Origin: Escherichia coli
GTDB taxonomy: Bacteria; Pseudomonadota; Gammaproteobacteria; Enterobacterales; Enterobacteriaceae
Assembly: GCF_024223415.1 (NCBI RefSeq)
Contig: NZ_CP100504.1
DNA: 63,428 nt
Direction: 5' to 3' (one strand)
Shown here: positions 29,392-52,974 of the stretch, piece by piece
How the letters are laid out: the number at the start of each line of letters is the position of its first letter
How positions within the stretch are numbered: the first letter of the stretch is position 1
Notes under the pieces: model-generated
Told to the model about the DNA's origin: nothing
Databases searched by the model: none
The model's input: only the letters and a program-made list of their open reading frames with translations
Translations under genes and position numbers: made by a program

Positions 29392-29965
29392 TATGTCACT
29401 CCGTCAGATATGCCATGCCACCCGGTATGTTGTTGTCCGGGGCCTGTGTTGGTTGTTCTGGTGTCTGAAATACGCCGTCATTCTGCCACTGGCCACAATG
29501 GCCCTGATGGCTCTGTTTGTTTTATGGAAGGACAACACCACACCGGGAAAATTACTGGTTCAGGAAATTGACTTCGTAAGACAAACAGCCCCTGCCGGGC
29601 AGTTTCCTGTAAGAGAATGTTTGCCTTCTCTGCATGATCTTCCAGGAGCAGAAGAGAAAATCTGCCGTTACCGTGCTGCTGATGCTGCAGATTATGTCAG
29701 GGAGACTGACCGGTCACTGATGCAACTGGTCACCGCATTCTGGGCAACGCTGGCACTTATGTATATGTCGTTTGCGGCAGGCACCGGGAAATATCCGGTG
29801 CGACCCGGAAAAATGAAATGTGTCCGTGTGGCAACAGCAGATGAGCGTCTGAAGGAAGTTCTTGCAGAAGACACTTCCCTGCCGGGAAAAATCAGGGAAT
29901 GCCATGTTTATTTCCCTGATGACCGAACAAACAGAAGCAACGGAGATAAAAATGAACATGCGTAA
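29381..29965 (+). CDS. traP: conjugal transfer protein TraP
   Basis: 194-aa membrane protein in the expected position. Confidence 0.85.
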   Translation: MANNMSLRQICHATRYVVVRGLCWLFWCLKYAVILPLATMALMALFVLWKDNTTPGKLLVQEIDFVRQTAPAGQFPVRECLPSLHDLPGAEEKICRYRAADAADYVRETDRSLMQLVTAFWATLALMYMSFAAGTGKYPVRPGKMKCVRVATADERLKEVLAEDTSLPGKIRECHVYFPDDRTNRSNGDKNEHA

Positions 29966-30272
29966 TATTAATGTTATTACAGCCCGCGTTGTGCCGGATA
30001 AAAACGTATCAGATGATTTTATGCATGCTGTTCTCAGTAACTGCACCACAAAAATAGTTCTTCCTGCTCCGAAGGTGTTCAGTTCTGAATCATTGCCGCA
30101 CAAATTTAATATGGCTGCTGTCGGTGTGATGAAGAAGGGAATGTCGATGAGCTTATTTTCTTCTCCGGGAAATACAGTGGTCTCCGGACATCCCTGTGCA
30201 GGGAAAACAAATCTGACAGCAGAGTTAATTTCTGCTGTTGTGGGGAGTAATAAAAAAGGAGAAGGGCAATGA
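29952..30272 (+). CDS. TrbD/TrbG-like small transfer protein
   Basis: 106-aa ORF from MNMRNINVITARVV (RBS ggag) filling the traP-traV gap; cannot tell whether it corresponds to trbD, trbG or a fusion. Confidence 0.5.
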   Translation: MNMRNINVITARVVPDKNVSDDFMHAVLSNCTTKIVLPAPKVFSSESLPHKFNMAAVGVMKKGMSMSLFSSPGNTVVSGHPCAGKTNLTAELISAVVGSNKKGEGQ

Positions 30273-30784
30273 AACAGATTTCTTTATTTATTCCTCTGCT
30301 GGGAACCTTATTACTTTCCGGCTGCGCAGGAACAAATACGGAATTTGAGTGTAACGCCACCACATCCGATACCTGTATGACGATGGAGCAGGCCAATGAG
30401 AAGGCCAAAAAACTGGAGCAGTCCTCAGAAGCAAAGCCGGTTGCGGCATCACTGCCGCGCCTGGCTGAAGGGAACTTCCGGACAATGCCGGTGCAGACCA
30501 TCACCGCGACCACTCCGTCCGGCAGCAGACCTGCGGTGACGACACTTCCGGAGCAGAAACTGCTGACACCTCGCCCGCTGTTTACTGCAGCCCGGGAAGT
30601 GAAAACGGTTGTCCCGGTCAGTTCAGTTGCGCCGGTAACGCCTCCCCGTCCGTTAAGAACGGGTGAGCAGACGGCAGCATTATGGATAGCACCATATATT
30701 GATAATCAGGATGTTTATCATCAGCCATCCAGTGTGTTTTTTGTTATTAAACCGTCTGCGTGGGGAAAACCACGTATTAATTAA
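30269..30784 (+). CDS. traV: outer-membrane lipoprotein TraV
   Basis: 171 aa with lipobox LLLSGCAG; matches TraV. Confidence 0.9.
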   Translation: MKQISLFIPLLGTLLLSGCAGTNTEFECNATTSDTCMTMEQANEKAKKLEQSSEAKPVAASLPRLAEGNFRTMPVQTITATTPSGSRPAVTTLPEQKLLTPRPLFTAAREVKTVVPVSSVAPVTPPRPLRTGEQTAALWIAPYIDNQDVYHQPSSVFFVIKPSAWGKPRIN

Positions 30785-38947: not shown

Positions 38948-38971
38948 ATCTGTTCCCGTAAGGAGGCATTG

Positions 38972-39394
38972 ATGGCGCTGACAAAGAAGCAGCGGGAAAA
39001 ACTGCGTATGAAATTCGGCGGTCGTTGTGCGTACTGCGGCTGTGAACTGCCGGAAAAAGGCTGGCATGCCGACCATGTTCAGGCGGTGCTCCGCAAGTCA
39101 GAGCAGTGCATGAAGGCTGCAGAAAAGCGCATTTTCAGGCTGAAATCCACCGGTGATGTTTTCAGACCGGAGGCCGACTGTCCGGAAAACCTCGTCCCGG
39201 CCTGTGCGCCGTGCAACCTGCTGAAAACAACATATTCGCTGGAGATGTTCAGAACGCAGGTGTCCCTGCAGGTTGAACGGGGGCGAAGAAGCAGCGTGAA
39301 TTTCAGGACCGCAGAACGGTTCGGGCTGATTCAGGTGGTGAACAAACCAGTCGTGTTCTGGTTTGAGCAATATCAGAGGGAGAGTGAGGTATGA
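38972..39394 (+). CDS. HNH endonuclease
   Basis: 140 aa with CAYCGC...WHADHV...PACAPCN (HNH fold with paired Cys motifs); RBS aggagg. Confidence 0.75.
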   Translation: MALTKKQREKLRMKFGGRCAYCGCELPEKGWHADHVQAVLRKSEQCMKAAEKRIFRLKSTGDVFRPEADCPENLVPACAPCNLLKTTYSLEMFRTQVSLQVERGRRSSVNFRTAERFGLIQVVNKPVVFWFEQYQRESEV

Positions 39395-41241
39395 AACGTC
39401 TTCTGCCATTGCTGCTGGGGCTGGCAGTCAGTGTGGCACAGGCTGACAGCAACAGTGATTACCGGGCGGGTTCTGATTTTGCCCGTCAGATTCAGGGGCA
39501 GGGTACAGGCAGTATTCAGAATTTTAATCCGCAGGAAAGCATTCCCGGCTATAACGCGAATACGGACGAGACAAAATATTACGGTGGAGTGACTGCCGGC
39601 GGGGATGGCGGCCTGAAAAATGACGGCACCACGGAATGGGCGACCGGTGAAACCGGAAAAACTATCACAGAGTCATTCATGAACAAGCCGAAAGACATTC
39701 TTTCACCGGATGCGCCGTTTATCCAGACCGGCAGGGATGTGGTGAACCGGGCTGACAGCATTGTGGGAAACACCGGGCAGCAGTGCAGTGCGCAGGAGAT
39801 AAACCGCAGTGAATTCACAAACTATACCTGTGAGCGGGACACGATGGTGGAGGAGTACTGCACACGGACTGCCAGTATCACCGGGGACTGGAAATACACG
39901 GATGAATATCGTGAGGTGACGATACCGCACTCACAGTTCCAGTTCAGTATGAACGGGCTGAAACTGGTGTTCAGTGTCACGGCTCCGGTAACCGGTACAG
40001 TGGAAAGTGCATCATTGTCTGTATACGCCGCTTTTTTCTTCCTGAATTCTCGTTATACCTTCATGAATTCGACGTTCAATGTTGGCCTGGTAAACGGGCA
40101 GTCGGGTACTTTCCCCTTGTCCGGGGCGACAGGTTTGCAGGTGACACAGGGGCAGGTTCTGACCGGTAGTGGCTGTACTGCAAACGGTAATTGCCTCCCG
40201 CACGGGAACGGTGACAGGAAAGTCTATGAATCGCTTGTCAGTGGTGCTTCCACCTTTACGCTGAAACTCAGGATGAAGGTCCGTGATAAAGAATGGGTTC
40301 CCCGGGGGGAGTGGGTGGAGAGTTGTCCGTTTAATAAAGCGGATGGCGTGCTGAAAGGCACTGAGTGTTCAGAGCCGGGGGGTACGAAAACGGGTGTGAT
40401 GGAAGGTAAACCCTGGAGCATCACACAGGCATGCTGGGCATACCGGGATAAATATGTCACACAGTCCGCAGATAACGGCACCTGTCAGAAATATGTCGAT
40501 AATCCGGCCTGTACGCTGGCCTCACGTCAGTGCGCGTTTTATTCCGATGAGGGAAGCTGTCTGCATGAGTATGCCACGTACTCCTGCGAGTCCAGAACAT
40601 CAGGAAAAGTGATGGTCTGTGGTGGTGATGTCTTCTGCCTTGACGGTGAATGCGATAAGGCACAGAGCGGAAAAAGCAGTGATTTTGGTGAGGCTGTATC
40701 ACAGCTGGCTGCGCTTGCCGCCGCAGGTAAGGATGTCGCCGCCCTGAATGGTGTGGATGTCAGGGCTTTCACGGGCGAGGCGAAATTCTGCCGTAAGGCC
40801 GCAGCCGGCTTCAGTAACTGCTGTAAGGATGGTGGCTGGGGTCAGGATGTGGGGCTGGCGAAGTGTAACAGTGAAGAAAAGGCGCTGGGAAAGGCAAAGG
40901 ACAACAAACTGACGGTGAGTGTTGGCGAGTTCTGTTCGAAAAAGGTACTCGGTGTCTGCCTGCAGAAAAAGCGCAGCTACTGCCAGTTTGATTCGAAACT
41001 GGCGCAGATAGTCCAGCAGCAGGGGCGTAACGGGCAGCTGCGTATCGGGTTTGGCAGCGCCAAAAGTCCTGACTGCCGTGGAATAACCGTGGATGAACTA
41101 CAGCGTATTAAGTTCGACCAGCTGGACTTCACTAACTTCTACGAAGACCTGATGAATAACCAGAAAATCCCGGACAGTGGCGTTCTGACGCAGAAAGTGA
41201 AAGAGCAGATTGCTGACCAGCTGAAGCAGGCAGGACAATAA
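39391..41241 (+). CDS. traN: mating-pair stabilisation protein TraN
   Basis: 616 aa, Cys-rich with signal peptide; matches TraN. Confidence 0.95.
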   Translation: MKRLLPLLLGLAVSVAQADSNSDYRAGSDFARQIQGQGTGSIQNFNPQESIPGYNANTDETKYYGGVTAGGDGGLKNDGTTEWATGETGKTITESFMNKPKDILSPDAPFIQTGRDVVNRADSIVGNTGQQCSAQEINRSEFTNYTCERDTMVEEYCTRTASITGDWKYTDEYREVTIPHSQFQFSMNGLKLVFSVTAPVTGTVESASLSVYAAFFFLNSRYTFMNSTFNVGLVNGQSGTFPLSGATGLQVTQGQVLTGSGCTANGNCLPHGNGDRKVYESLVSGASTFTLKLRMKVRDKEWVPRGEWVESCPFNKADGVLKGTECSEPGGTKTGVMEGKPWSITQACWAYRDKYVTQSADNGTCQKYVDNPACTLASRQCAFYSDEGSCLHEYATYSCESRTSGKVMVCGGDVFCLDGECDKAQSGKSSDFGEAVSQLAALAAAGKDVAALNGVDVRAFTGEAKFCRKAAAGFSNCCKDGGWGQDVGLAKCNSEEKALGKAKDNKLTVSVGEFCSKKVLGVCLQKKRSYCQFDSKLAQIVQQQGRNGQLRIGFGSAKSPDCRGITVDELQRIKFDQLDFTNFYEDLMNNQKIPDSGVLTQKVKEQIADQLKQAGQ

Positions 41242-41264
41242 GGTATGGAAAATAACCGGGGGAA

Positions 41265-41513
41265 ATGATGAAGGTCATATTCACGTCGAACCGTTTTATT
41301 GATTTTCTTATCCGGCTTTTGATTACAGCGATTGTCATTTCCCCGGTAATTATCTGGTCGTGGGATACGGTAAAAGAAACCACGGCAGACGGGATGCCTG
41401 CCGCTGCTTTCGTTATCCTTTACTCCGGTGTGCTCCTGTTTATTCTGTATTTTTGTTTTTCTGCCCTGACCTGCAGAAAACCGATGAAAGAAAAAATGAT
41501 GAAAGGAATGAAG
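41265..41513 (+). CDS. trbE: TrbE (small membrane protein), frame runs into traF without a stop
   Basis: MMKVIFTSNRFIDFLIRLLITAIVISPVIIW... two TM segments; RBS ggggga; no stop codon before the TraF start in the same frame. Confidence 0.6.
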
Positions 41514-42257
41514 ATGAATAAAGCATTACTGCCACTGTTACTCTGCTGCTTTATTTTTCCGGCGTCAGGGAAAGATGCAGGCTGGCAGTGGTATAACGAG
41601 AAAATAAATCCGAAGGAAAAAGAAAATAAACCTGTACCTGCAGCCCCCCGTCAGGAGCCGGATATTATGCAGAAACTGGCCGCGCTGCAGACGGCAACAA
41701 AGCGGGCGCTGTACGAAGCCATTCTGTATCCCGGCGTGGATAATTTTGTGAAATATTTCCGGCTGCAGAATTACTGGACTCAGCAGGCCGGGCTTTTCAC
41801 CATGAGTGCTAAAAAAGCTATGCTGGCACATCCCGAACTGGACTATAACCTGCAGTACAGCCATTACAACGGCACGGTCCGGAACCAGCTGGCGGCAGAC
41901 CAGGCGCAGCAGCGACAGGCCATTGCGAAACTGGCTGAACACTACGGCATCATGTTTTTTTACCGGGGGCAGGACCCCATCGACGGGCAACTGGCGCAGG
42001 TCATTAATGGCTTCCGGGATACCTATGGTCTGAGTGTTATTCCCGTTTCCGTGGATGGCGTGATTAATCCGCTGTTGCCGGATTCCCGGACTGACCAGGG
42101 GCAGGCGCAGCGCCTCGGCGTGAAATATTTCCCGGCCATGATGCTGGTAGACCCGAAACAGGGCAGTGTTCGCCCGTTATCATACGGCTTTATTTCGCAG
42201 GATGACCTGGCAAAACAATTCCTGAACGTTTCTGAAGACTTTAAACCGAATTTTTAA
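41514..42257 (+). CDS. traF: pilus assembly protein TraF (thioredoxin-like fold)
   Basis: 247 aa from MNKALLPLLLCCFIFPASG (signal peptide) with RBS aaagga upstream; matches TraF. Confidence 0.85.
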   Translation: MNKALLPLLLCCFIFPASGKDAGWQWYNEKINPKEKENKPVPAAPRQEPDIMQKLAALQTATKRALYEAILYPGVDNFVKYFRLQNYWTQQAGLFTMSAKKAMLAHPELDYNLQYSHYNGTVRNQLAADQAQQRQAIAKLAEHYGIMFFYRGQDPIDGQLAQVINGFRDTYGLSVIPVSVDGVINPLLPDSRTDQGQAQRLGVKYFPAMMLVDPKQGSVRPLSYGFISQDDLAKQFLNVSEDFKPNF

Positions 42258-42377
42258 AGAGGTCATTTAAATGAATTTTATTTCTTTATGGCCTTTATTG
42301 CTGGCCCAGGTGACAGTCATGTCACTGACAGTGATTTTCCTTGCTGCTGACAGGCGTTTTTTTCATGGGACTGTTTT

Positions 42378-42632
42378 GTGGTTTGTACCCTGTCCATGAT
42401 GATGGCGGAAGGTATTGTTATTATGAAATATGAATTGTGGCATATCCCTCCTGCCCTGCTGGGTCTGGCAGGAGTGTTGTCATGGTTGCTGCTGCTACTC
42501 CATACAGGATATTTTTCAGGCATATCAGAAGGAGTGCATAAGCGTTTGTGGCTCGCTGTTGCCGCAGTGTTTTCTGGTGCGGGAATGATTATATTCTACT
42601 GGTTGCTCCATGCATTGCATCAGAAAACATAA
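42378..42632 (+). CDS. TrbA-like membrane protein (tentative)
   Basis: 84-aa hydrophobic ORF in the traF-traQ interval where F carries trbA and antisense artA; a minus-strand ORF (42589-42807) may correspond to artA. Confidence 0.35.
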   Translation: MVCTLSMMMAEGIVIMKYELWHIPPALLGLAGVLSWLLLLLHTGYFSGISEGVHKRLWLAVAAVFSGAGMIIFYWLLHALHQKT

Positions 42633-42863
42633 TAAAATAACGAATAGTTAATGCGAGAATAAGACACATCCAGAGAATAAATATTATAAGTGCGAGTTTT
42701 GCTCTTCTTATTCGTAACGCGGACAAGTAATTTATTACAGAGAGGAGCATCCAGAGTTCAATGCATATTATTATTAATATAAAAACAGAGAGCGTGATAA
42801 TTAACATAACTGTGTCTGATTGATGAAATCAGCAATATACTGAATAATAATGGTGTTTTAAAT

Positions 42864-50785: not shown

Positions 50786-52777
50786 ATGAGTTTTAACGCA
50801 AAGGATATGACCCAGGGCGGTCAGATTGCGTCCATGCGTATCCGCATGTTCAGCCAGATCGCCAATATCATGCTTTACTGCCTGTTTATTTTTTTCTGGA
50901 TACTCGTTGGTCTGATTTTATGGGTAAAAATAAGCTGGCAGACGTTTGTGAACGGCTGTATTTACTGGTGGTGTACCACGCTGGAAGGCATGCGGGATTT
51001 AATCAAGTCCCAGCCAGTATATGAGATTCAGTATTACGGCAAAACCTTCCGGATGAACTCTGCCCAGGTACTGCATGATAAATATATGATCTGGTGCGGT
51101 GAGCAGCTATGGTCCGCATTCGTTCTGGCGTCTGTCGTGGCCCTGGTTATTTGCCTGATCACCTTCTTTGTTGTCTCCTGGATTCTGGGGCGTCAGGGTA
51201 AACAACAGAGCGAAAATGAAGTCACAGGTGGTCGTCAGCTGACAGACAATCCGAAAGACGTTGCCCGGATGCTGAAAAAAGACGGCAAGGACTCCGATAT
51301 CCGGATTGGCGACCTGCCGATTATCCGGGATTCCGAAATCCAGAACTTCTGTCTGCACGGCACGGTCGGGGCCGGTAAGTCGGAGGTTATCCGTCGTCTG
51401 GCCAACTACGCCCGTCAGCGCGGTGATATGGTGGTGATTTATGACCGTTCAGGGGAATTTGTTAAAAGTTACTATGATCCCTCCATCGATAAAATCCTGA
51501 ATCCGCTGGATGCCCGCTGTGCCGCATGGGATTTGTGGAAGGAGTGTCTGACACAGCCGGATTTTGATAATACCGCAAATACTCTGATCCCTATGGGTAC
51601 AAAAGAGGACCCGTTCTGGCAGGGTTCAGGACGTACCATTTTTGCGGAAGCGGCGTACCTGATGCGTAATGACCCCAACCGCAGCTACAGCAAACTGGTG
51701 GACACACTGCTTTCCATCAAAATCGAAAAACTGCGTACCTTCCTGCGTAATTCTCCGGCGGCCAACCTGGTGGAAGAGAAAATTGAGAAAACGGCGATTT
51801 CCATCCGTGCTGTGCTGACCAACTACGTGAAAGCCATCCGTTACCTGCAGGGGATTGAGCATAACGGTGAGCCCTTCACCATACGTGACTGGATGCGTGG
51901 TGTCCGGGAAGATCAGAAAAACGGCTGGCTGTTTATTTCGTCGAACGCCGACACCCATGCCTCCCTGAAGCCGGTGATCTCCATGTGGCTGTCCATTGCC
52001 ATTCGTGGTCTGCTGGCAATGGGAGAAAACCGTAACCGTCGTGTGTGGTTTTTCTGTGATGAGTTACCCACGTTACACAAACTGCCGGACCTGGTGGAGA
52101 TCCTGCCGGAAGCCCGTAAGTTCGGTGGCTGTTATGTGTTTGGTATCCAGTCCTATGCCCAGCTGGAAGATATCTACGGTGAGAAAGCGGCGGCCACGCT
52201 GTTTGACGTCATGAACACCCGTGCTTTTTTCCGTTCCCCGAGCCATAAGATTGCAGAGTTCGCTGCCGGTGAGATTGGTGAGAAAGAGCACCTGAAAGCC
52301 AGCGAGCAGTATTCCTACGGTGCTGACCCGGTACGTGACGGGGTATCGACCGGTAAGGATATGGAGCGTCAGACGCTGGTCAGTTATTCCGACATTCAGT
52401 CTCTGCCGGATCTGACCTGCTATGTCACTCTGCCCGGACCGTATCCGGCAGTAAAACTCTCCCTGAAATATCAGGCACGACCGAAGGTCGCTCCGGAGTT
52501 TATTCCGCGTGACATCAACCCGGAAATGGAGAACCGTCTGAGTGCCGTACTTGCCGCAAGGGAAGCAGAAGGTCGTCAGATGGCCAGCCTCTTTGAACCG
52601 GAGGTTGCCTCCGGAGAAGATGTGACTCAGGCTGAACAGCCACAACAGCCACAACAGCCACAACAGCCACAACAGCCACAACAGCCACAACAGCCGGTGT
52701 CTCCTGCCATCAACGATAAGAAGTCAGATTCAGGTGTGAATGTTCCGGCAGGGGGATCGAGCAGGAGCTGGAAATGA
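50786..52777 (+). CDS. traD: type IV coupling protein TraD
   Basis: 663 aa with N-terminal TM segments, Walker A GTVGAGKS and a C-terminal QPQ repeat tail. Confidence 0.95.
52637..52690. repeat. 9-bp tandem repeat (cagccacaa)n inside traD
   Basis: About six tandem units encoding the (QPQ)n tract in the TraD C-terminal tail. Confidence 0.9.
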
Positions 52778-52974
52778 AACCGGAAGAAGAGATGGAACAG
52801 CAACTGCCACCCGGGATCAGTGAATCCGGTGAAGTGGTGGATATGGCCGCTTATGAGGCATGGCAACAGGAAAATCATCCGGACATCCAGCAGCAGATGC
52901 AGCGTCGTGAAGAGGTGAACATTAATGTGCACCGGGAGCGTGGGGAGGATGTTGAGCCGGGAGATGATTTCTGA
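52774..52974 (+). CDS. small acidic hypothetical protein between traD and traI
   Basis: 66-aa ORF overlapping the traD stop and ending exactly at the traI start. Confidence 0.45.

Follow-up and report, generated by a model that had tools for sequence, protein, structure and literature searches.

The trbE and traF genes in the window, i.e., the whole 63,428-nt stretch of Escherichia coli DNA analyzed here (contig NZ_CP100504.1), are joined in one continuous reading frame, and the cause, as read from alignment with related plasmids, is a 4-bp deletion that shifts the last 17 codons of trbE. This deletion had gone unnoticed in the first-pass annotation of the DNA. The fused frame is a rare, real and ordinary frameshift allele of known genes that is already in public databases. 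We consider it likely that it represents a trbE frameshift allele in an F-like (MPF-F, IncFII-type) transfer operon, from which two products are expected, namely TraF from its own start and a TrbE'-TraF fusion.

The continuous trbE-traF frame and the deletion at the CTGA repeat

As seen in the ORF listing and by reading the sequence, positions 41265..42257 on the plus strand form a single ORF of 330 codons that opens with ATGATG. The 330-codon version begins at 41265, and a 329-aa version begins at the ATG at 41268, the counterpart of the start annotated for trbE in F and R100. For the trbE Shine-Dalgarno (SD) sequence, pairing with the anti-SD is predicted at -8.6 kcal/mol, as in F. A Pfam search assigned fusion residues 12-67 to TrbE (PF11100; 53.4 bits vs. 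a cut-off of 25) and residues 106-320 to TraF (PF13728; profile positions 1-224 of 224, E = 1.7e-69). Among the NCBIfam models, PRK13718 (TrbE) was matched over positions 1-75 of 84 (130.9 bits vs. a cut-off of 94), PRK13703 (TraF) over about 1-248 of 248 (479 bits vs. 294), and TIGR02739, the TraF equivalog, with 337 bits vs. 204.6. The protein is thus a member of the TraF family by a full-length match above the curated cut-offs, and the TrbE match, also above its cut-off, covers the two-helix membrane core. The ORF listing and the Pfam and NCBIfam matches therefore agree on one 330-codon frame, supporting as correct the first-pass reading of TrbE followed by TraF; the internal start at MNKALL with a ribosome-binding site, which that annotation had pointed out for TraF, is present as well (Table 1). 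Furthermore, traF sits in the F-type tra operon order from traN/trbE to traQ/trbB, and the tra proteins of CP070073 were colinear on window positions 24365-59622 in a tblastn search. The trbE-traF frame is not a new kind of system; its genes are known genes of the MPF-F operon.

We compared the junction with those of F and R100, as had been proposed. Both are two-gene junctions with an out-of-frame overlap, and the window is 4 bp shorter. The claim that trbE and traF are separate genes in F was borne out: trbE (258 nt) and traF (744 nt) lie in different frames and overlap by 8 nt, and R100 is alike. TrbE of F and R100 has 85 aa and ends at the TAA inside ATGAATAA, 8 nt into traF in the other frame, and the acidic tail of F TrbE ends with ...DLQKPDERKSDERNEDE. 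Megablast of positions 41200-42300 against PLSDB matched 3676 plasmid records, nearly all 95-99% identical, and the matched stretches were consistently 4 bases longer than the window query. The deletion was placed by alignment with F, R100, CP027545, OP378619 and CP027554. In this alignment, the sequence is GCC CTGA CTGA CCTGC, i.e., a perfect CTGACTGA, in F, in CP027545 and in CP027554, the nearest intact haplotype; R100 and OP378619 have CTGACTGG at the site, and the window reads GCC CTGA CCTGC. The exact break is ambiguous within the CTGA repeat. The traF start follows 44 nt downstream of the site, which falls within the loop of a small predicted hairpin; ViennaRNA MFE predictions for the window, F, R100, CP027545 and OP378619 gave a loop of 8 nt in the window vs. 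12 nt in the relatives.

One CTGA of the tandem CTGA-CTGA was most likely lost by replication slippage (slipped-strand deletion). With 4 nt gone, trbE continues in the frame of traF. The loss also took out a TGA by which the traF frame is normally closed on its upstream side; in F/R100-type sequences, as read from the alignment, this is the TGA of the first CTGA unit. A phase-variable repeat was set aside as an explanation, because the allele is stable across diverged plasmids and the tetranucleotide is present in only two units. Known contingency loci have repeat tracts far longer than two tetranucleotide units.

The native trbE tail and its TAA are out of frame because of the 4-bp deletion. 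They can still be read in an ORF at 41360..41521, which ends with ...DLQKTDERKNDERNEDE and matches the TrbE C-terminus of CP027554. A complete TrbE of about 85 aa with its own stop codon was not found in the window, the TrbE model being matched over 1-75 of 84 only vs. 1-84 for F TrbE. TrbE loses only the 17-residue variable acidic tail, and the conserved two-helix core is kept. The composition of the replaced part differs accordingly, with 7 K/R and 1 D/E in fusion residues 68-85 vs. 4 K/R and 8 D/E in the F TrbE tail. Insertion mutants of trbE in F reportedly transfer normally, i.e., trbE is said to be dispensable. For the trbE phenotype, the open literature that we searched only cites Maneewannakul et al. 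1992.

The traF gene itself is intact. For its SD, the same duplex energy of -5.6 kcal/mol was obtained with each of the five sequences compared, and the mean unpaired probability from -15 to +6 of the traF start is 0.56 in the window vs. 0.50-0.54 in the relatives. An altered traF ribosome-binding site was therefore rejected, since SD, spacing, duplex energy and predicted accessibility are as in F and R100. In tblastn, WP_001030371.1 of CP070073, which is also the TraF of R100, matches the window TraF with 100% identity, and the exact sequence occurs on at least 1000 contigs. Its putative signal peptide, read by eye as MNKALLPLLLCCFIFPASG|KD, has an n/h/c layout and an A-x-G motif. TraF of F reportedly has a processed leader of 19 residues.

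Table 1. Coordinates of the trbE-traF region and of small neighbouring ORFs in the window, segments of the fusion protein, and the gene pair in F and R100.
Feature	Position	Strand	Basis or remark
SD-like GGGGGA before trbE start	41258..41263	+	Sequence reading
trbE' core, codons 1-67, native frame, two hydrophobic segments	41268..41469	+	Pfam TrbE, PRK13718, hydropathy; alternative start 41265
Predicted hairpin TTTTTCTGC / GCAGAAAA	41456..41480	+	Deletion site in loop; ViennaRNA MFE prediction
Deletion site	41466..41470	+	One CTGA unit left where relatives have CTGACTGA or CTGACTGG
Post-deletion trbE stretch read in traF frame (...CRKPMKEKMMKGMK), replacing native acidic tail DLQKTDERKNDERNEDE	41470..41513	+	Translations
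Orphaned native trbE tail frame, ending at TAA (41519-41521) inside ATGAATAA	41471..41521	+	trbE start no longer leads there
traF Shine-Dalgarno AAGGA	41503..41507	+	6 nt before ATG; identical in window, F and R100
traF, intact, 247 codons + stop (ATG at 41514)	41514..42257	+	Full-length TIGR02739 + PRK13703
Putative TraF signal peptide MNKALLPLLLCCFIFPASG, A-S-G cleavage motif before KDAGW	41514..41570	+	Sequence reading
N-terminal tail of fusion	residues 1-9		Charge +2
Hydrophobic segment 1 of fusion	residues 10-31		Hydropathy peak
Loop of fusion	residues 32-43		Net negative
Hydrophobic segment 2 of fusion	residues 44-67		Hydropathy peak
New linker + first three TraF codons	residues 68-85		7 K/R, 1 D/E
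TraF signal-peptide core ALLPLLLCCFIFP	residues 86-98		
ASG, then KD	after residue 98		
Small hydrophobic ORF in 585-nt cassette, 42 aa	42271-42399	+	
Small hydrophobic ORF in 585-nt cassette, 84 aa	42378-42632	+	
Small hydrophobic ORF in 585-nt cassette, 72 aa	42589-42807	-	
trbE of F (NC_002483)	80848-81105		
traF of F (NC_002483)	81098-81841		
trbE of R100 (NC_002134)	66863-67120		
traF of R100 (NC_002134)	67113-67856		

Relatives and spread of the allele

F and R100 have the same genes in the same order with traN upstream, and their traF shares its SD, start and signal peptide with that of the window; over residues 1-67, their TrbE is nearly identical to the TrbE of the window. They differ in that CTGACTGA or CTGACTGG is kept and trbE has the acidic tail with its own TAA, whereas the window has 4 nt less and its trbE reads through traF. 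The Salmonella Typhimurium IncFIB/IncFII plasmid CP022071, which we take to be pSLT-like, shares the gene pair, its order and the two-helix TrbE core with the window, but its TrbE has 71 aa with a short, non-acidic tail, and an 11-nt spacer precedes traF. Judged from this plasmid, the TrbE tail and the trbE-traF junction are variable within the family.

The first-pass annotation had allowed that a continuous frame might be the normal state in relatives. We found instead that trbE is out of the traF frame in F, R100 and about 99.8% of relatives; thousands of records besides F and R100 have the out-of-frame 8-nt overlap, and CP022071 has its spacer. In a search of 5.8 billion protein clusters, the TrbE part was covered by none of the best 120 of 365 TraF-family representatives, each of which covered at most 77% of the fusion query, and the TraF relatives from this search were about 245-255 aa long. 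A continuous frame as the family norm was thus rejected, as TraF stands alone in F, R100, CP022071 and all listed TraF-family representatives. Note that clustering at 90% identity puts the 329-aa TrbE'-TraF protein with 616-aa TraN proteins under a TraN representative, apparently a clustering artefact, and the fusion is not its own representative in the homology search because it is clustered under TraN.

Six complete RefSeq E. coli plasmids, against about 2811 matching places overall, have an identical 161-nt junction; in PLSDB the figure is 5 out of about 3431, so that the allele makes up about 0.2% of matching records. The RefSeq carriers are CP033634 (pTB-nb3), CP070073, CP129283 (pGZM7d), CP128973, CP172218 and CP172187, and they were obtained from chickens (China), a human (USA), chicken meat (Switzerland) and a TUM-designated strain. 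They have an identical 329-aa fusion ORF, and their traN-trbE-traF regions are 99.4-99.5% identical to the window without gaps; they differ from it downstream of traF, having trbA/artA in the place of the 585-nt cassette of the window. In CP070073, traD is intact, whereas it is frameshifted in the window, and all other tra genes from traM to finO are intact too. Some carriers of the allele contain IS elements inserted in tra. PGAP annotates trbE as a "frameshifted" pseudogene followed by a normal 247-aa traF in each of the three records that were inspected (CP033634, CP070073 and CP172218).

The exact 329-aa fusion protein was also found on 346 contigs of a large public collection (one accession is AYW28424.1), its UniRef entry covers 75 members, and 453 blocks list it in an encoding-contig index of NCBI, ENA and Logan assemblies. 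Two downstream contexts were seen among the 10 contigs listed. Three (L013-L015) have the post-traF cassette of the window and are 99.0-99.94% identical to it over about 7 kb, one of them 99.94% identical over 6990 nt. The other seven (L016-L022) have trbA/artA after traF, with upstream flanks 97.5-99.4% identical to the window.

These counts bear on whether the four bases are missing only in this record through a sequencing or assembly artefact, a reading to which we give a probability close to nil. A second frameshift in the window, a 1-nt loss in a G-run of traD, could hint at an imperfect sequence, but the deletion lies outside any homopolymer, the same 161-nt junction was recovered from six independently sequenced complete RefSeq plasmids, and the exact fusion protein recurs in the contigs and index blocks mentioned above, including the contig that is nearly identical to the window. 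Assembly error is ruled out by the junction recurring in many independent assemblies.

A single 330-codon trbE-traF frame is also present in p417H-90 (NC_019094; L008 169-1161). The lesion is not that of the window: CTGACTGA is intact, and one A is missing from the run GAAAGAAAAAA that lies downstream of it, so that this fusion either arose independently or reflects a homopolymer sequencing error. A few bases before the p417H-90 lesion, CP148476 carries an extra GAT, an in-frame insertion of 3 nt. The last ~50 nt of trbE thus carries several small indel variants.

Other features of the tra region

The traD gene of the window (50786-52971) is frameshifted, with one G missing from a GGGGGG run (about 52750-52754) compared with R100. 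Its frame stops at 52775-52777, giving 663 aa vs. 738-741 aa, and the C-terminal ~73 aa, including the acidic tail ...EPGDDF, can be read only in another frame, to 52971. This tail is presumably the TraM-binding tail of TraD. In addition, the PQ repeat of traD is 27 nt shorter, in frame. A 131-nt stretch of traD had no exact match in RefSeq; four RefSeq records match it gaplessly, and the one inspected, pE2855-5 (AP018801), annotates traD as 'frameshifted'. The traD lesion may be a genuine, recurrent homopolymer mutation, or else it stems from a sequencing error. If it is genuine, the plasmid may transfer poorly for a reason unrelated to trbE.

Between traF and traQ, at 42258-42842, an unrelated 585-nt cassette takes the place of trbA/artA of F and R100, and the traF stop codon is the exact point at which homology to trbA-type plasmids ends. 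CP027545 and the three draft contigs L013-L015 have this cassette too, and its small ORFs (Table 1) gave no Pfam match. Upstream, an HNH endonuclease gene (38969-39394, 140 aa) lies directly before traN with a 4-nt overlap; its product is 100% identical to that of CP070073, and the gene is absent from the F and R100 annotations. It is not known to be part of the F gene set.

The window differs from CP070073 at several further genes. Neither trbG, which lies between trbD and traV in CP070073, nor traJ had a tblastn match in the window (for trbG, see 29952-30784). TrbD of the window is only 74.5% identical to its CP070073 counterpart, and two further genes, traM (77%) and traY (53%), diverge. 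The differences in the regulatory genes look like the usual allelic mosaicism of F-like plasmids.

Expected products, alternative readings and meaning of the allele

For a trbE frameshift allele with two products, which we regard as the likely reading, the last 17 trbE codons are replaced by a lysine-rich linker leading directly into the traF start codon. The first product would be normal pre-TraF of 247 aa made from the unchanged SD and ATG, likely the main source of functional periplasmic TraF; since the SD, spacing, ATG and predicted accessibility of traF are unchanged, TraF should still come from its own start. The second product would be the 329/330-aa TrbE'-TraF fusion, made by every ribosome starting at trbE. 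In the wild type, ribosomes translating trbE terminate 5 nt beyond the ATG of traF, where they may start again. Stop/start overlaps of 4 nt are found elsewhere in the operon, at traC/trbI, trbI/traW, traW/traU and traH/traG, and such overlapping junctions, that of trbE-traF included, suggest that translation may be coupled.

By the positive-inside rule, TrbE' is predicted to form a helical hairpin with both ends inside (N-in/C-in), the basic linker being cytoplasmic, and the TraF signal peptide would insert into the membrane the normal way round. Judging from the sequence, the TraF domain could plausibly be exported and cleaved from the fusion by signal peptidase I. A review describes TraF as a periplasmic protein of 26 kDa and states that pilus formation is abolished when either terminus is deleted (PMC7555446), so that a fusion left uncleaved and tethered is probably inactive. 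We infer that the allele is nearly neutral. A further idea, which we place on the unlikely side, is that the fusion is made in quantity as a three-segment membrane protein and cleaved by signal peptidase I, yielding mature TraF from an anchored precursor, with the allele neutral or mildly advantageous. If this were true, the gain could be, e.g., a fixed TrbE:TraF stoichiometry or a higher TraF output, and the anchored precursor would explain the persistence of the allele on two backbones as well as the second fusion in p417H-90.

The frameshift might also inactivate TraF, either because ribosomes reading through cover the internal start or because the tethered fusion is inactive; carriers would then be transfer-defective and spread only clonally or with helpers. 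The N-terminal region of TraF is required for its function and for TraH binding (PMC7555446), and the IS insertions in tra of some carriers would fit such a history. Moreover, pGZM7d, the only carrier for which mating data were found, was recovered in transconjugants at about 2x10^-4 only alongside a second, conjugative IncFII plasmid under double selection (PMC11067769). However, the SD, ATG and predicted accessibility of traF are unchanged, wild-type ribosomes already cross the traF start before reaching the trbE stop 5 nt beyond, and Rho-type polarity would not be expected because no premature stop arises. Two backbones carry the allele, their flanks have diverged, and their hosts come from several continents; in addition, all the other tra genes of CP070073 are intact. 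We therefore hold inactivation of TraF to be unlikely.

Selection of the fusion as a bifunctional TrbE-TraF protein seems to us very unlikely. Some F-like systems do make TraW and TrbC as a single polypeptide (PMC7555446), p417H-90 has a second in-frame fusion by a 1-nt deletion in an A-run, and the allele persists in hundreds of assemblies. On the other hand, it is rare in both RefSeq and PLSDB, a TrbE N-terminus was found in none of the listed TraF-family representatives (the best 120 of 365), the linker is a mere out-of-frame reading of the old trbE tail, and the p417H-90 event may be a homopolymer error. At about 0.2% of matching records and in no listed representative, the trbE-traF fusion is not the conserved state of a lineage, as would be expected of a natural two-domain fusion such as TraW-TrbC.

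Returning to the frameshift allele with two expected products, its consequences concern both annotation and biology. Gene callers disagree on the allele: Prodigal-type callers give a 329-aa "TraF", and PGAP gives a trbE pseudogene and a 247-aa TraF. Because of this disagreement, tools that assess tra completeness may count trbE as missing or TraF as aberrant. Finally, the allele serves as a natural experiment. It suggests that F-like plasmids can persist with little or no need for either the acidic C-terminal tail of TrbE or the stop/start coupling to traF.
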